Made by a program: the position numbers and the translations under genes. The notes beneath the pieces are model-generated. The model saw only the letters and a program-made list of their open reading frames with translations. It was not told where the DNA came from and did no database searches. This document shows positions 16 through 23,308 of a stretch of DNA of 32,000 nucleotides, one piece after another; within the stretch, counting starts at the first letter, position 1, and each line of letters opens with the position of its first letter. The DNA is from Candidatus Thorarchaeota archaeon (GTDB taxonomy: Archaea > Asgardarchaeota > Thorarchaeia > Thorarchaeales > Thorarchaeaceae): positions 1 to 32,000 of the forward strand of contig SHMX01000012.1 in assembly GCA_008080745.1 (NCBI GenBank). Reading direction: 5' to 3'.

Positions 16-140
16 TACAGACTTCCACCTATTCAATGTCTAACTTTGTCCAGATATTTCGTATCAGTTTGCAACCCATGAATAAATATCGACGTTTGCT
101 TAAAGGCACCTAGCAAAAATTCATTGTCTGATGGTAAGTG

Positions 141-193
141 TTATAAGTCTACCAAAAAGAAGCGAACTAGCCTCAAGCCAGTCAAAATGAGGT
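141..193 (+). promoter_or_regulatory. Putative TATA box (TTATAA, 141-146) and SD (GAGGT, 189-193) of the rps13 operon
   Basis: Archaeal TATA-like hexamer upstream of the gene; SD-like motif 8 nt before ATG 202. Confidence 0.45.
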
Positions 194-201
194 AATCAAC
201 C

Positions 202-669
202 ATGTCCGAGCAAGAATACAAACACATTGTACGATTAGCAGGCCACGATATTGATGGTCAGATTAATTTACTCCAAGGTATAACAAACGTCCGTGGAGTG
301 GGCCTTCGAATGTCAAAGGCATTAATTAGAAAGCTTAACCTAGATCCAAGTATGCGGCTAGGATTTCTTGATGATGATAGTATCGCAGAGATAGAAAATA
401 TTCTCAAGAACCCCCTAGAATCGGGTATACCTGAATGGTATGTCAACCGCCCAAGAGACAGAATGACTGGCAAAATGGTTCACTTGATAGGTGCAGACCT
501 AGAATTTGCTCATCGCTCGGATATTGACCGACTAAAACGGATACGATCTTGGCGTGGAGTTAGACATGCTCTTGGTCTTAAAGTACGTGGACAGCACACC
601 AGAACAACTGGTCGTGGTGGCGTTGCTGTGGGTGTATCAAGAAAGAAACTTGCAAAGAGGTCTGAATAA
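202..669 (+). CDS. rps13: 30S ribosomal protein uS13
   Basis: IVRLAGHDIDG, GVGLR and SWRGVRHALGLKVRGQHTRTTGR motifs. Confidence 0.98.
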   Translation: MSEQEYKHIVRLAGHDIDGQINLLQGITNVRGVGLRMSKALIRKLNLDPSMRLGFLDDDSIAEIENILKNPLESGIPEWYVNRPRDRMTGKMVHLIGADLEFAHRSDIDRLKRIRSWRGVRHALGLKVRGQHTRTTGRGGVAVGVSRKKLAKRSE

Positions 670-4763: not shown

Positions 4764-5107
4764 GGCTCTGGTCCGAAGAGTAGCCCCGATTTTGTTCCGA
4801 ATTCAAGGTTACCCGATGAATTCCTTGCAACATCAAACTAAGCTTCCTACCCTAGGTTTCACGTCGACAGATCATCAACCTATTCTTGGAATTGCTACCT
4901 AGTGATGGACCGTTTCATCGAATCCGAATAGGTCCTCAACAGGTGGTCCTGTATCATAGTCATATCCTATCCGGGCGTGTCGTTTCTGTTTCCAGAGCAT
5001 GGTTCTCACCATTCAGCTCGCGCTGAACTAGCATCGACAAGTAGTCGGGATCTTCCTCAGCCTCTACGAGAAGTAGATACCGTCGGTTGCGCTTTCGCTC
5101 CAGAGCC
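4764..5107 (-). ncRNA. rnpB: Ribonuclease P RNA, about 344 nt
   Basis: Terminal P1 helix GGCUCUGG/CCAGAGCC; conserved regions GAGGAAGAUCCCG, GAAACAGAAAC, UGAAACGG and ACAAAAUCGGGGCUAC in the right order; T-tract after the 3' end. Confidence 0.93.
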
Positions 5108-12229: not shown

Positions 12230-12766
12230 CTATGCTTTCTTGAGTCGGACTTCGAGTATTCCGTTTCGTATAGCTGACCTAGCCGCATCCTTCTGGACTT
12301 TTGACGGCAATCTGATTTCTTTGTGATAGGGACGAGAGGGATTATCAACATGTATCGTTAGAGCCTGGCCTTTGATGCGTACTTTAATCTCATCACGCTC
12401 AACACCAGGGAGCTCAGCGACAACGACAATCTCATCTGCTTCCTCTATAACATCCACAAGCGGTTCGAGGGCTGGCCCGCTGGGAATTTCACTTTCATCA
12501 GCAGGAACATTTCCGAACCGTTGAATGATTGGTTTTCCATCGGGACCCATCTGCATTTTTACACCGAACACAAAGGGGTTTGTAGAGGATGGGTCACCCA
12601 TCAAATCCTCCATAACTGAAGGATCAAACATAGTACCATCACCAAAACCAGATAGCATCTGGTCAAGCATAGCTTCTATGTTTCTTAGCATCTCTTCTGG
12701 AAGGAACTCACCGAACCATCGGCGGAGTTTTCTTCTGCGTTCGTCAGCATCATCGTCCCAAGACAT
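12230..12766 (-). CDS. hsp20: Archaeal small heat-shock protein Hsp20
   Basis: PFVFGVKMQMGPDGKPIIQRFGNV; alpha-crystallin domain EPLVDV..AELPGV..NGILEVRL. Confidence 0.95.
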   Translation of the reverse strand: MSWDDDADERRRKLRRWFGEFLPEEMLRNIEAMLDQMLSGFGDGTMFDPSVMEDLMGDPSSTNPFVFGVKMQMGPDGKPIIQRFGNVPADESEIPSGPALEPLVDVIEEADEIVVVAELPGVERDEIKVRIKGQALTIHVDNPSRPYHKEIRLPSKVQKDAARSAIRNGILEVRLKKA

Positions 12767-15135: not shown

Positions 15136-16188
15136 CTAGTCAACCTCCAAGTCTTCCAAACCATCAAGTTCTGAGAAGATTTCCTCCTCGTCTAGTATCT
15201 CTGAAACACCCGGGTTAAGCACACGGAGTAACATTGCATCAGCTTTCTCAATGATAGCTTGACGCTTTTTACCCCCAACTGTTGCGCCAATTCTGATTGC
15301 GTGTATGTCAGGGTTGATTTCTTTCTCATCAATATCTTCAGGACGCTCAACACGTACCTCGATGTATCCCGAGGGATGAAGTCCTCGCACAGCCTTTGGT
15401 GTTCGATATCCTGATGACACCATTGCAATGCGACCTTTCTTCTTCTCACGTGTGGCGCTATCGATACCACGAACTTTTCTCCAGGAATCACTAACTCGCT
15501 TCCATCGATGAGCTTGCTCATGACGGAAGGCAGGTTTCCGCTTTTTCATTTCGGCAGAGATTCTTCGAAGTCTAGGATCATGAAGGGTTTCCCTGGTTGG
15601 AAATTCGGGTTCTTCCTTCTTTTTCTTCTCTTTCTTCTTCTTCTTTGGTTTGGGTTTTGGTGTGGGTTCAGCCTTTGGTTCCTTCTTTGGCTTTTCCTTT
15701 GGTTTAGGTTTAGCCTTAGGTGCTTCTTCCTCTTCTTTGGGAAGCATCTTCTTAGCTGCTGCTATCATCTTCTTTGCAGTAGCAGCGCCAACACCATCCA
15801 CTTTTTCTGCCAATTCTTTAGGATCTGCTTGAGATACCTTCAAGACCGATTTGTATCCAGCTGCTTTCAGACTCTCTACAGTAGAGGGTCCAACACCTGA
15901 AATATCTTGGAGTTCAGGCTTCTTTGTCTTCTTCGGCTCTTTCTTGGTTTTCTTAGCAGACTTTTTCGCTTTGGGCTTTGTATCTTTAGACTCTTCAGGA
16001 AGTAGCTTCTTTGCTGCTGCTATCATCTTCTTTGCAGTAGCAGCGCCAACACCTGAAACCTTCTCAGCCAACTCTTTAGGGTCAGCACGAGAGAGTTTCA
16101 GCACAGTCTTGTATCCAGCCTCTTCGAGGCTTTCAGCTGTGGAGGGGCCTACTCCCGGAATATCTGAAAGTTTGGGCTTCTTTGACAA
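15136..16188 (-). CDS. rpl32e: 50S ribosomal protein eL32 fused to two N-terminal helix-hairpin-helix modules
   Basis: eL32 core FRHEQAHRWKRV..WRKVRGIDS..GYRTP..RGLHPSG; two IxGVG..VxGVG repeats; TTG start with GGAGG SD. Confidence 0.95.
   Translation of the reverse strand: MSKKPKLSDIPGVGPSTAESLEEAGYKTVLKLSRADPKELAEKVSGVGAATAKKMIAAAKKLLPEESKDTKPKAKKSAKKTKKEPKKTKKPELQDISGVGPSTVESLKAAGYKSVLKVSQADPKELAEKVDGVGAATAKKMIAAAKKMLPKEEEEAPKAKPKPKEKPKKEPKAEPTPKPKPKKKKKEKKKKEEPEFPTRETLHDPRLRRISAEMKKRKPAFRHEQAHRWKRVSDSWRKVRGIDSATREKKKGRIAMVSSGYRTPKAVRGLHPSGYIEVRVERPEDIDEKEINPDIHAIRIGATVGGKKRQAIIEKADAMLLRVLNPGVSEILDEEEIFSELDGLEDLEVD
15742..16176 (-). repeat. Intragenic tandem duplication of the HhH module, period 258 nt
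   Basis: 41-nt perfect identity between 15755-15795 and 16013-16053. Confidence 0.9.
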
Positions 16189-19894: not shown

Positions 19895-20179
19895 TTACCA
19901 TCTCCTACTGAGGCGTTTCTTCAATCGATCCTCAGGGCGTCCCTGTAGATACTCGCCATCAACGCGGACGACGGTTCTATCAGGTAGTGTAATATCAAAG
20001 ACACAGACACTCTTTGGCAACAATACATTACCAGTGTCGGTATCTAGTGTAATCATCTCTTTTGACTCACCAATGATTTTTCCAGACCTACAGATGAGAG
20101 TAGGGTCCCGTGAATCACAGACATGGGCCTTTAGGCCAACAAGCTCGTGGCCAATTAGATTTCGTGGAGTAATTGTCAT
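19895..20179 (-). CDS. rnp1: RNase P protein subunit 1 (Rpp29/Pop4)
   Basis: NLIGHELVGL, GKIIGES, PKSVCVF, RPEDRLK. Confidence 0.95.
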   Translation of the reverse strand: MTITPRNLIGHELVGLKAHVCDSRDPTLICRSGKIIGESKEMITLDTDTGNVLLPKSVCVFDITLPDRTVVRVDGEYLQGRPEDRLKKRLSRRW

Positions 20180-20388
20180 CTCTCAAGCCCCAGTTCTTCT
20201 TCTCGTTGGACGGTGAGTATTCTCGCGATTGCTTTCTTAATGATTCGAGTTCGATAGGGGTTCTCAGTACCGCCGCCGGTTGCTAGAGAAATTCTCTCGC
20301 TAGAGAGCTCATCATATAGTTCCTCAAGCCTCTTCTGACGTTCTGCAGGAGTGAGTTTTCGAATATCTTTGGCTGTTAGTTGTGGCAT
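20176..20388 (-). CDS. rpl29: 50S ribosomal protein uL29
   Basis: DIRKLT, GGGTENP, IKKAIARILTV. Confidence 0.96.
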   Translation of the reverse strand: MPQLTAKDIRKLTPAERQKRLEELYDELSSERISLATGGGTENPYRTRIIKKAIARILTVQREEELGLER

Positions 20389-21248
20389 TATTCTTCGCCT
20401 CCATCAGATTCTACTGATTCAGCCGACTCGGCTGATTCTTCATCTTCATTCGATTCCTCAGTGCTCTCTTCTGCTACTTCCTCTTCTTCCTCGATTAGTT
20501 CAAGACCATCAAGTTCTTCGAGTTCTCGAAGCTCATCAATGTCGGTTATACCCTCAAGGGTTTCCTCAACTTCGTCCTCTTCTGCGGCTTCAGCCTCTTC
20601 TTCCTCTTCTTCTGGAGGTTTGACAAGAGTTGGTTGAGGTTCTTTACGAGGCTTTGGTTTCTTGACTGTAATAACCCCAGGTAACTTTGTTTCAGGACGC
20701 ATAATGCGAACCTTGATACCAATAACACCTGGTTTTAGTACAGCAATATCATCGGACTCGTCAACAAAGGTTGTTGCGGGTTGTCCAGTCTTTGCGATAG
20801 TACCCTGTTTGAACTTCTGATACCTTGCACGTCGGCTTGAGAGCTTTCCTTTTACGATAATCTCGCATCCGATTGCACCAGCACGCATGACCCGTCGAAG
20901 CACCCAATAAGCCATCCTTCTGAATCGAACGCCACGTTCGAGTTGTCTAGCAAGGCGAGATGCCATAACTTGAGCACTGAGCCAGGGGTTATCGATTTCG
21001 TTGACTTCAACCTGAACATTCTCAATTCCAAATTCGGTTTCAAGAATATAGGTCAGTTCACGAATCTTTGATCCTCGTCGTCCAATCACAACACCCGGAC
21101 GAGATGCATGTATGACAATCTCGGTTCTCATGGGCATCTTTCTAATCTCGCATCCACCATATCCAGCCGAGTTGAGTTCTCGCGTGAGAAATTCATCAAT
21201 CTTGAGGGTACGAGTGTTCTGCTCGATAAAGTACTTGATTGCCGACAT
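20388..21248 (-). CDS. rps3: 30S ribosomal protein uS3 with long acidic C-tail
   Basis: KH domain RPGVVIGRRG, GCEIIVKGK, GVIGIKVRIM. Confidence 0.98.
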   Translation of the reverse strand: MSAIKYFIEQNTRTLKIDEFLTRELNSAGYGGCEIRKMPMRTEIVIHASRPGVVIGRRGSKIRELTYILETEFGIENVQVEVNEIDNPWLSAQVMASRLARQLERGVRFRRMAYWVLRRVMRAGAIGCEIIVKGKLSSRRARYQKFKQGTIAKTGQPATTFVDESDDIAVLKPGVIGIKVRIMRPETKLPGVITVKKPKPRKEPQPTLVKPPEEEEEEAEAAEEDEVEETLEGITDIDELRELEELDGLELIEEEEEVAEESTEESNEDEESAESAESVESDGGEE

Positions 21249-21713
21249 TTAGGCCACCTCTTCTAGTACAATCTCTACGTGTGTGGTGTTCTCAAAATAT
21301 GGAGAACTTCTACCAAAGGCTCGTTCAATGAACGCCTTGTAGGTTCGTCCACGGTGTGCAGCTGCGTGCATGACTCTTAACCTGTCAATATCCAGGCCTT
21401 TGTTGTCAGCATTAGCCTCAGCATTCCTGACGATTTTTAGGATCATCTGAGCGGGCTTCACCGGATGTCCACCTGAAGGCCATTTCTTCATTCCTGAATG
21501 GTGACCTCTCTTTTTCTTGTGGCGTCTGTAAGGAACCCATGCTTTTTCCTCAATTACGGCCTCAAGATAGTCTATTGCCTTGTCCAGCATCATTCCTTTG
21601 ATGGCCTTACATACCTCTCTCGAGAACTTTGGGGAACAACGCATATTCCTACCGCTAGCTATAGCGGTCCTATCTGGGTCAATGCCTATTATTGAATATC
21701 TATACGATGGCAT
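21249..21713 (-). CDS. rpl22: 50S ribosomal protein uL22
   Basis: SPKFSREVC, GHPVK, NAEANA, RAFGRSSP. Confidence 0.98.
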   Translation of the reverse strand: MPSYRYSIIGIDPDRTAIASGRNMRCSPKFSREVCKAIKGMMLDKAIDYLEAVIEEKAWVPYRRHKKKRGHHSGMKKWPSGGHPVKPAQMILKIVRNAEANADNKGLDIDRLRVMHAAAHRGRTYKAFIERAFGRSSPYFENTTHVEIVLEEVA

Positions 21714-21920
21714 AGTGCCTCACTTCCGGTTATCTTGACTTGTGTGCGCTCACTTTCTGAGCAAGTCTTAGTCAAATGGCACCCTCGGACTAACCACTTC
21801 GAATCAGGACCCGGCACGCGTCTGCAGACGGTTCTCGCGAGCAGAACTAGCTGTCTGCACTGCTCCGTTGATTCTGAAACAGTCGTCTTTAGAGAGCAAC
21901 TACTCAAAGCCCGACGAACT
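21714..21920 (-). promoter_or_regulatory. Long structured leader upstream of rpl22 (candidate cis-regulatory RNA)
   Basis: Four predicted hairpins; TTAAAT TATA-like box at 21925-21930; GAGG SD. Confidence 0.45.
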
Positions 21921-22025
21921 TCACATTTAAGGCTTACGAAAGAACAGGAAAAATCAACGATTTTTGGAATGAGTTACCAAGTTCTCTGTATCGTTGGCTT
22001 TTTTGACGGAAAAACGGAGATGAAG

Positions 22026-22141
22026 TGGCGCCCAGGATGGGATTCGAACTCATGCCTCCAAAAGGAGAGCAGCTGCCTGATCGTAAAGCCACTAGGCAAT
22101 TCGATTCCAGGCTGCCGCCGTAACCGCTTGGCTACCTGGGC
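22026..22141 (-). tRNA. tRNA-Ser(GGA) with a 30-nt intron at 37/38 (22075-22104) and encoded CCA
   Basis: Acceptor GCCCAGG/CCTGGGC, G discriminator, anticodon stem GCAGC/GCTGC, long variable arm CTCC-TTTT-GGAG, TTCGAAT loop. Confidence 0.93.
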
Positions 22142-22200
22142 ATTTTGACCCCAACAAACAAGTGAAGATATAAGCATGACGCTGTTGCAAGAAATTAATA

Positions 22201-22220
22201 TTTAGAACACGTGTTCTAAA
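22201..22220. repeat. Perfect 20-bp palindrome TTTAGAACACGTGTTCTAAA
   Basis: Exact self-complementarity; lies between the asparaginase stop and the tRNA promoter. Confidence 0.9.
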
Positions 22221-22258
22221 AAACCTGGATGAAGATTCACATAATCCAACCGTTGAAA

Positions 22259-23308
22259 TTAGATCTCGTAGACGTTGGACCCACCAAGAGCTGATAGTTC
22301 ACCAACATAGTCCTTAGACATCATCTCGTGAACAATATCGGGATCCCGGGTATGGCCCAGTACCCATGCCAGTTTTACCATAGCAGCTTCTGATGTCATG
22401 ACATGAGCACTCATAGCTCCTGCCTCCAATGCTGCCCGTCCCACTTCATAGAGAGATAAATCTGCCTGCCCAAAGGCACACTGAGAACTAACAACAACAA
22501 AACATCCCTGATTGACTGCTTGACGGATAGCACCAGTTAAAGAATTCTCTACGGTGGGGATATTGCCTAAACCAAACCCCTCGATGACAATTCCATGATA
22601 GCCCATATCCACAATCCGAGAGAGTATTCCAGGGGGAAGACCTGGAAAAACCTTCAGAAGAAAAACACGAGAGTCAAGACGAGTATCAAATTTCGGAACA
22701 AGATTGTGTCTTCGTCGCCTTGTTTCATAGAGGACTATATCTCTAGTCAATACGCCAATAGGAATGGGATCCATCGAGTCAAAGGCATCGTATGAGTTGA
22801 CACGTAGTTTTCTGGTTCTAGTAGCACGGTGAATCTCACCATTGAACACAATACAGGTCTCGCCAATATCTCCAAAGGCTGCAACGCGCATAGCATCAAG
22901 AAGATTGCGAGGGGCATCACTCCAGGGCATAGAGGCAGGAATCTGGGACCCTGTAAAGACAATCGGTTTACCAAAGTCTTGTACCATGAATGAAACAGCC
23001 GAGGCAGAATAGACCATTGTATCGGTACCATGTGTTATGACAATTCCCTCTATATCGGGCATCTCATCATAGATGGTCTTGATAGCACCAGCGATATCTT
23101 GCCAATGATGTGGTTGGGCATTAGCCGAGTCAAGGAGGAACAATTCCCTTTGAATCACATCGATGCTTCCCAATTCTCTAGGGAGAGTTCCCAATAGCAT
23201 ATCCAATGAAAGGCCAGGACGGAGTCCCTTGGTGACCGGGTCTGTTATACTTGATATGGTACCGCCAGTGGCCAGAAGGCAGACTTTCGCAACCTTGTCA
23301 GTCTTCAT
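22259..23308 (-). CDS. ansA: L-asparaginase, type I (AnsA-like)
   Basis: ATGGTISS, ITHGTDTM, FTGSQIP, EGFGLGN, SSQC; no GatD N-terminal domain; start taken as ATG 23308. Confidence 0.88.
   Translation of the reverse strand: MKTDKVAKVCLLATGGTISSITDPVTKGLRPGLSLDMLLGTLPRELGSIDVIQRELFLLDSANAQPHHWQDIAGAIKTIYDEMPDIEGIVITHGTDTMVYSASAVSFMVQDFGKPIVFTGSQIPASMPWSDAPRNLLDAMRVAAFGDIGETCIVFNGEIHRATRTRKLRVNSYDAFDSMDPIPIGVLTRDIVLYETRRRRHNLVPKFDTRLDSRVFLLKVFPGLPPGILSRIVDMGYHGIVIEGFGLGNIPTVENSLTGAIRQAVNQGCFVVVSSQCAFGQADLSLYEVGRAALEAGAMSAHVMTSEAAMVKLAWVLGHTRDPDIVHEMMSKDYVGELSALGGSNVYEI

Follow-up and report, generated by a model that had tools for sequence, protein, structure and literature searches.

The main ribosomal protein operon and its upstream region

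The window, by which we mean the whole stretch of 32,000 nucleotides analysed here, encodes on its minus strand an operon of 19 genes that runs from uL22 to SecY. After uL22 come, on the same strand, uS3, uL29, Rpp29, uS17, uL14, uL24, eS4, uL5, and uS8, and then uL6, eL32, eL19, uL18, uS5, uL30, Hsp20, uL15, and SecY. The cluster includes Hsp20 and lacks uL3-uL4-uL23-uL2, in keeping with the gene order already known for Thorarchaeota, and the Hsp20 insertion has been described in the ribosomal protein operons of both Thorarchaeota and Odinarchaeota (PMC10833476). The genes and RNAs of the locus that concern us are:

21249..21713, minus strand: rpl22 (uL22), the first gene of the operon (Pfam Ribosomal_L22, E = 4.5e-27)
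20388-21248, minus strand: uS3, with a strongly acidic C-terminal tail of ~80 residues (runs of E and D)
19895-20179: Rpp29 (RNase P protein), inside the operon
15136-16188, minus strand: eL32, with ~200 extra N-terminal residues and helix-hairpin-helix domains (Pfam HHH_5, E = 1e-28)
12230-12766, minus strand: Hsp20/alpha-crystallin gene between uL30 and uL15, within the ribosomal protein operon
4769-5102, minus strand: archaeal RNase P RNA (163 bits), on the operon strand, ~5 kb past SecY
22029-22141, minus strand: tRNA-Ser(GGA), upstream of the leader, with a long variable arm (Rfam tRNA, 43 bits)

The tRNA-Ser(GGA) gene has a 32-nt intron in the anticodon loop, and ARAGORN, which reported no tRNA over the window, missed it. 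A run of five T's lies 3' of the gene (22014-22010), and an asparaginase-family gene is also found upstream of the leader in the window. The tRNA precedes rpl22 in this genus only, and the other genera have different upstream genes followed by the same promoter and leader. The genes found upstream in most genera encode a ~130-aa protein of unknown family and a DUF1922-like protein with a zinc ribbon; in this genus both genes are on another contig, adjoining a TnpB-like ORF. A rearrangement in this genus has swapped the upstream genes and kept the promoter and leader with rpl22, which indicates that the element belongs to rpl22 and not to the genes upstream of it. The TnpB/OrfB-like zinc-ribbon ORF (22-558, plus strand, of L135, G000:C5:1-2939) is beside the conserved ~130-aa gene, at the position where the leader and rpl22 come next in other genera, and is likely to mark the IS-associated breakpoint of this rearrangement.

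The original prediction had proposed that a long structured leader heads the operon, with transcription starting either at a TATA-like box at 21925-21930 or by read-through from the tRNA. The features relevant to the initiation of transcription and translation are:

21924..21931, minus strand: TATA box of the promoter, which reads CTTAAATG in the window and TTTAAAT in most relatives, directly preceded by a BRE-like, A-rich stretch
21900..21901, minus strand: predicted transcription start, A21901 or G21900, deduced from the position of the TATA box
21714..21901, minus strand: complete 5' UTR of the operon headed by uL22, ~187 nt from the predicted start
21718..21727, minus strand: Shine-Dalgarno region GGAAGUGAGG, within the conserved block CCGGAAGUGAGGCA, nearly invariant in relatives

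The TATA-like box turned out to be a conserved box present throughout the family. When matched as a pattern, it was found 22-27 nt, mostly 25-26, ahead of the start of the structural model in 32 of the 43 loci; the remaining 11, this window included, have TTAAAT/TTTTAA variants at an unchanged position. The distance from the box to the CAGT motif is 65-72 nt in the loci with enough upstream sequence, and the spacer between box and start is variable in sequence and constant in length in the alignment of the relatives. Since the distance between archaeal TATA boxes and transcription starts has a median of 23 bp (PMC4247193), the start is predicted at ~21901/21900, i.e., 1-3 nt before the first conserved pair. 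The conserved box puts the start ~187 nt upstream of the ATG and not close to it. Read-through from the tRNA is unlikely to matter, given the T5 run that follows this gene and its presence upstream of rpl22 in this genus only. Between the conserved core and the ATG, there are no runs of five or more T's in 43 relatives, and no TATA-like stretch was apparent by eye in these regions, so that rpl22 apparently must be transcribed through the element. The Shine-Dalgarno region is complementary, with one mismatch, to the 3' end of the 16S rRNA (...GAUCACCUCCU).

Structure of the leader

We took the uL22 homologues of 40 relatives and aligned their upstream regions. The alignment of the family reads, in this order, TTTAAAT box, spacer, conserved core of ~125 nt, variable segment of ~60 nt, CCGGAAGUGAGGCA block, and ATG, and RNAalifold recovers from it a long-range helix and the P2 hairpin. 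The comparison of these relatives shows that the first ~125 nt of the leader have a conserved predicted fold, a rod made of the helices P0, P1, P2a, and P2b. From the base upward, the rod consists of P0, P1, an asymmetric internal loop of invariant sequence, P2a, and a P2b capped by a tetraloop. Its elements, together with an alternative to its base and the hairpin that follows it, are:

21898-21892 with 21786-21780, minus strand: P0, outer helix of 7 bp (3 G-U in the window), 83-88% of cells paired
21884-21876 with 21800-21792 and 21874-21870 with 21805-21801, minus strand: P1, long-range helix of 14-15 bp, A21875 bulged
21860..21869, minus strand: 5' strand of the internal loop, with invariant CAG at 21862-21860 (at least 97% conservation, 69 distinct sequences)
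21866-21865 with 21814-21813, minus strand: GG/CC clamp of 2 bp, 97.8% of cells paired
21859-21853 with 21829-21823, minus strand: P2a, 99.6% paired, 3-4 covarying pairs
21847-21843 with 21835-21831, minus strand: P2b, with the apical tetraloop G[CUCG]C at 21842-21837 and G21836 bulged
21806..21822, minus strand: 3' strand of the internal loop, with invariant A.ACG..UGCC at 21823-21813, GACGCGUGCC in the window
21882..21900, minus strand: alternative 5'-terminal hairpin, GUUG 21900-21897 with CGAC 21885-21882, proposed from covariation
21734..21776, minus strand: P3 hairpin, between the rod and the ribosome-binding site, of unrelated sequence among relatives

The helices at the base of the rod vary in sequence and keep their pairing, with changes on both sides in all 7 pairs of P0 and compensatory changes in 10 of the 15 pairs of P1, where 94.5% of cells are paired. 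P1 also carries a conserved run of G-U and U-G wobble pairs; these would be A-C mismatches on the opposite strand, which points to an RNA made from the rpl22 strand. At least 97% conservation is seen for the CAG before P2a, for UUCUGC.CGC, for A.ACG..UGCC after P2a, and for the GU/UG of the wobble block. The UUCUGC.CGC stretch corresponds to the 5' face and the apex of P2b, a helix whose 5' arm is invariant and whose 3' arm varies, with a register shifted in several genera. At the junction near P1 (alignment columns 41 and 102), we observed a UU to AA covariation that is not of the Watson-Crick type. Some 25 invariant nucleotides are unpaired or specific to one face, in an architecture that is fixed across 16 genera. 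Invariant unpaired nucleotides lying between covarying helices are typical of the sites of ligands or proteins.

In a MAFFT alignment of 24 sequences, 91.1% of the pair cells hold standard pairs, against 40-45% when the partners are slid by 1-3 columns, both-sided changes affect 18 pairs, against 6-10 in the slid controls, and the observed values were reached by none of 500 shuffles. Model-guided alignments gave 93.3% of cells paired with 22 both-sided-change pairs in 100 cells (41 distinct sequences) and 92.6% with 21 such pairs in 153 cells (69 distinct sequences); these alignments are biased towards the model, the relatives are non-independent, and the covariation controls (37-45% of pair cells paired overall in the slid ones) leave some phylogenetic relatedness in, and the MAFFT result and the slid controls agree in direction with them. 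Folding of the single sequence at 21700-21935 is no better than that of dinucleotide shuffles (z = +0.24), and the stability of the predicted transcript (21711-21901) does not exceed that of shuffles either (z = +0.75). The case for the structure therefore rests on the comparison with relatives.

Seen in this light, the original idea that the operon begins with a long structured leader is borne out by a conserved upstream promoter and a conserved, covarying structure, and the suggested covariation analysis of Asgard rpl22 upstream regions reveals, where a lack of conserved structure would have told against the idea, a fold conserved in the Thorarchaeota family with 21 pairs showing compensatory double changes. 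The stems that had been drawn fared unevenly. All four of the inverted repeats are on the minus strand where they had been located; as structure, two of them are conserved and two are not, and as a single sequence they fold no better than shuffles. UGCAGAC/GUCUGCA with its inner GUUCU/AGAAC (21859-21823) is the conserved and covarying P2a/P2b. GACUUG/CAAGUC (21767-21737) falls within P3, where a hairpin exists in all relatives with a variable sequence. Conservation is lacking for the first stem: GUCG at 21915-21912, which is its 5' arm, is in the variable spacer between the TATA box and the start, upstream of the predicted start, and its CGAC arm (21885-21882) pairs instead with GUUG at 21900-21897 or, at long range, with 21794-21791. 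The fourth, UUAGUC/GACUAA (21793-21768), clashes with P3 and the covarying P1. The dominant element, the long-range helix P1, and the outer helix P0 had been overlooked.

The alternative hairpin at the 5' end cannot coexist with P0's outer pairs or with the base of P1. It is paired in 86% of cells, against 7-70% in slid controls, and a Watson-Crick swap from GUCG/CGAC to GCUG/CAGC is found in 16-17 sequences. The long-range partner of CGAC in P1 (21794-21791) absorbs the same changes mostly by G-U wobble. Essentially every sequence retains an intact P1 base; the local 5' hairpin is intact in 50 of the 69 and broken in about 10. In constrained folds of the 69 full leaders, the two states are iso-energetic on average, and no consistent difference in the accessibility of the Shine-Dalgarno region was found between them, so a switch acting through this accessibility is unsupported by constrained folding. 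The covariation of the alternative hairpin suggests that the closing of the rod may be regulated or kinetically guided; the second pairing might be a switch, an intermediate of folding, or part of a pseudoknotted junction.

P3 is a hairpin in every relative (mean z = -2.66 over 68 distinct relatives, 96% of them with z < -1), and in the window it contains both GACUUG/CAAGUC and CUCA/UGAG. We considered two further pairings. A fold in which the GUUCUG repeats swap partners is contradicted by the covariation of P1, during which P2b remains invariant. A pairing of the invariant GUGCCGG with CCGG or GGCA near the Shine-Dalgarno region has no compensatory pattern, and GGCA is missing in ~9 of 43 sequences.

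Distribution of the element and relation to known RNAs

Genomes were searched with a covariance model of the leader (R1). The model has a single match in this genome (99 bits) and exactly one in 81 of the family's 86 genomes, with every one of the 23 high-quality genomes among them; the five genomes without a match are all incomplete (60-88% complete). It has no match in the only genome of the sister family, and across a phylum-wide sample of Asgard archaea it matches 26 of 26 genomes of the leader's own family and none of 124 genomes in 26 other families. When one genome per species was scanned for the exact motif (185,579 species), 69 records matched, whose titles are mostly Thorarchaeota, the rest being Promethearchaeota, uncultured archaeon, archaeon, and one Hermodarchaeota. 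The exact motif is also present in 43 metagenome contigs and has no match in viral contigs. Of these 112 loci, 107 have uL22 on the same strand with its start 89-110 nt past the motif, and the other five are too short to tell. The element is single-copy and strand-specific, is invariably followed by rpl22, and does not extend beyond one family/class.

No distant homologue was detected with the covariance model in the sister-family genome or in other Asgard classes. Upstream of rpl22 in the former (L026:1957-2190, minus strand) is a different long rod of ~25 bp (z = -2.66), which has the same apex as the leader, G[CUCG]C, and which may be its diverged counterpart. In several other Asgard families, rpl22 also starts an operon, with TATA boxes of its own and leaders of ~35-90 nt of unrelated sequence. 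In five such loci (L027-L031), inspected over 260 nt upstream of rpl22, TATA-like boxes occur 38-120 nt before the ATG, and in one of them (L031) rps19 and rpl22 are 160 nt apart.

The leader was predicted to be a new RNA, and indeed it matches no known RNA family in Rfam. A scan of 21000-23000 with Rfam 15 (cmscan, E up to 10) returned only the tRNA and a spurious miRNA match, both outside the leader, and a scan of the whole window at gathering thresholds returned nothing in the leader. Several classes of RNA were considered individually and rejected. For a C/D box sRNA, RUGAUGA is found in 1 of 69 sequences, and no sequence combines it with box D in the order that the class requires. For an H/ACA sRNA, the A-N-A after P2a is inside the internal loop and not 3' of a lower stem, and there is no K-loop. 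For a K-turn of the kind used in L7Ae leaders, neither the variable P0/P1 loop nor the conserved loop strands (..GGAnnCAG, nACGuGUGCC) fit, and the conserved loops lack a 3-nt bulge with adjoining tandem G.A/A.G. The apical loop is a tetraloop of the YNCG type. A small coding ORF or leader peptide is excluded by indels of 1-2 nt in the core among relatives and by a conservation devoid of three-base periodicity; ORFs of 72 and 137 aa in the region extend over P3 and the spacer, both of them variable.

The genome's own 5S, 16S, 23S, and RNase P RNAs were compared with the leader by BLAST, Smith-Waterman with shuffles, covariance model, and scans of the invariant motifs, and the similarity is at chance level. 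One exact match deserves mention. The invariant motif A.ACG.GUGCC (9 specified nt) recurs at 23S 1073-1083 as AGACGGGUGCC (L032, G000:C9), which by homology with E. coli is the H38/H39 junction; about 0.03 such matches are expected by chance, four motifs having been tried, and the topology of pairing differs from that of the leader. The 23S motif is kept in ~35 genomes of the family and becomes GUACC in one genus (g12) where the motif of the leader is unchanged, and no co-variation between the two was found in the 86 genomes. The match is probably coincidental. Two other likenesses were rejected: the one to loop C of the 5S rRNA (CAGAAC..GAAG) is located in a paired and covarying segment of the leader, and common C-GCGA-G tetraloop hairpins account for the complementarity of GCUCGCG to CGCGAGC of the 5S, 23S, and RNase P RNAs, the loop of the leader itself being a closed G[CUCG]C tetraloop. 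As a side observation, the 16S rRNA match of this genome (G000:C2:589938-592348, L033) spans 2411 nt against the 1478 positions of the model, which implies roughly 900 nt of insertion, with at least one intron, in the SSU gene.

Possible functions and comparison with known systems

The reading we favour, with moderate confidence, is that this would be an autoregulatory ribosomal protein leader of the main ribosomal protein operon of Thorarchaeota, transcribed from its own TATA promoter. It draws on the conservation pattern and, being the reading with the best precedents, on known cases: leaders of this type exist in bacteria and four candidate motifs in archaea (PMC7247131), L7Ae controls its own synthesis from its 5' UTR (PMC5539422, PMC6298567), and archaeal ribosomal protein mRNAs with long 5' UTRs have been described (PMC4247193). 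The invariant loop, the G-U block, and the face of P2b would form the putative protein-binding site, and the most likely candidate ligand would be a ribosomal protein encoded in the operon and present in excess of free rRNA. Its binding might lower the initiation of translation at rpl22, the stability of the mRNA, or both, thereby closing a feedback loop. With 60-70 nt between the rod and the downstream Shine-Dalgarno region, a direct occlusion of the latter is not obvious.

A more specific version, which we put forward tentatively, is that the leader acts as a bistable sensor in which a ligand at the invariant loop decides whether the 5' hairpin forms or the rod closes, thus setting the output of the 19 genes. 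The ligand could then be a ribosomal protein of the operon, possibly a binder of domain II of the 23S rRNA such as uL30, uL18, or uL22, if the match to H38/H39 were meaningful.

The rival explanations are, in decreasing order of probability, a constitutive element, a sensor of a ligand other than a protein, a processed small RNA, and a DNA operator. The first, which seems to us rather unlikely, is that the leader is a constitutive mRNA element devoid of feedback, be it a protection of this very highly expressed polycistronic mRNA, by the rod and by P0 or the 5' hairpin, against 5'-end-dependent decay, a platform for ribosome standby or folding, or a processing signal. P0 and the alternative hairpin do start 1-3 nt from the predicted 5' end, most folds are predicted to leave the Shine-Dalgarno region accessible irrespective of the rod, and convincing mimicry of rRNA was not found. 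However, a protective stem would need neither ~25 invariant nucleotides that are unpaired or face-specific nor an architecture fixed in 16 genera, and other Asgard families do with unrelated leaders of 35-90 nt.

An improbable second is a riboswitch-like sensor of a metabolite, an ion, an uncharged tRNA, temperature, or another RNA, with the invariant internal loop as the pocket and the two exclusive pairings of CGAC as the switch. This would account for an invariant asymmetric loop flanked by covarying helices and for two alternative pairings that both covary and are iso-energetic on average. Yet no aptamer of Rfam is matched, the single copy implies that there is no regulon of other genes, and neither a terminator nor an expression platform sequestering the Shine-Dalgarno region was found in the leader. 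We know of no riboswitches on ribosomal protein operons.

The third is that an independent small RNA of ~125-130 nt is processed from the 5' end of the operon, with rpl22 only sharing the promoter, and we regard it as quite doubtful. Archaeal small RNAs made from 5' UTRs are known, the conserved core stops ~60 nt before the ATG with variable sequence in between, and a rod with paired 5' and 3' ends resembles a stable RNA. But the core is not followed by a T-run terminator in 43 loci, no separate rpl22 promoter could be seen by eye in the same regions, features of C/D box, H/ACA, or K-turn RNAs and Rfam matches are lacking, and the element is strictly linked to rpl22, which follows it in 107 of 112 loci, with no locus shown to lack it.

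Finally, it is hardly credible that the invariant GTTCTGCTCGCGAGAAC inverted repeat at ~+55 is a DNA operator serving as a transcription-factor roadblock, with the RNA structure incidental, because the near-palindromic nature of the segment and the contrast between the invariant 5' arm and the variable 3' arm of P2b, which might suggest it, are outweighed by a palindrome that is imperfect and shifts the register of its 3' arm in several genera, by the covariation of P0, P1, and P2a as their sequences change, and by G-U pairs that exist only in the RNA of this strand.

If the leader is an autoregulatory one, the closest parallels in location are the bacterial S10 and spc leaders, i.e., the S10 leader bound by L4 and the S8 site of the E. 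coli spc mRNA, which are likewise in the mRNA of the homologous cluster (in E. coli, the genes from uL22 to uS17 are in S10 and those from uL14 to uL15-secY in spc). The presumed logic is shared, an operon product that exceeds the rRNA binding its own mRNA. The likeness stops there: no similarity in sequence or structure exists between these leaders and that of Thorarchaeota, whose operon lacks L4. The E. coli S8 site is internal, near rplE, and mimics h21 of the 16S rRNA, and rRNA mimicry of that kind was not found in the Thorarchaeota leader. Among Archaea, the classic case of feedback by a ribosomal protein on a polycistronic mRNA is the L1 operon of Methanococcus vannielii, where L1 recognises its mRNA at a mimic of the site that it occupies on the 23S rRNA; both operon and protein are different, and the short rRNA mimic is close to the start codon, whereas the rod is 60-70 nt upstream and was not found to contain a mimic. 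L7Ae autoregulates via a K-turn in its own 5' UTR in Sulfolobus and others (PMC5539422, PMC6298567). The theme of an archaeal ribosomal protein controlling translation through a structured 5' leader would be common to both, as a candidate in our case, but neither a K-turn nor a K-loop fits the conserved loops of the Thorarchaeota leader and L7Ae is not in the operon.

The nearest relatives in kind are four candidate archaeal r-leaders, L4-Archaeoglobi, eL15-Euryarchaeota, S15-Halobacteria, and S15-Methanomicrobia, which were identified in 5' UTRs by comparative genomics and whose ligands were assigned by inference (Eckert and Weinberg 2020, PMC7247131). Like the leader described here, they are lineage-restricted and supported by covariation; they concern other genes, phyla, and structures, and none is upstream of rpl22 or in Asgard archaea. 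At ~125 nt plus P3, the Thorarchaeota leader is also far larger, and a covarying alternative pairing sets it apart. No published leader upstream of rpl22, or in Asgard archaea, was found in the literature that we searched. The element is outside every described RNA family and would resemble bacterial and archaeal ribosomal protein leaders in its way of working.

Known archaeal cis-regulatory RNAs are few: some riboswitch classes, the L7Ae and L1 leaders, and the four candidate r-leaders. If the bistable leader is real, it would be the first structured cis-regulator described in Asgard archaea, the nearest known prokaryotic relatives of eukaryotes. The operon that it heads encodes about a third of the ribosomal proteins, SecY, and a subunit of RNase P, and a leader that heads, and perhaps controls, such an operon would offer a direct handle on the balance of ribosome synthesis in this lineage. 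It is also well suited to experiment, being short, strongly supported by comparison, and endowed with defined invariant nucleotides and a finite set of candidate protein ligands, which can be produced in recombinant form although the organisms are uncultured, and its pair of covarying, mutually exclusive helices might be used to study how archaeal RNAs switch or fold co-transcriptionally.
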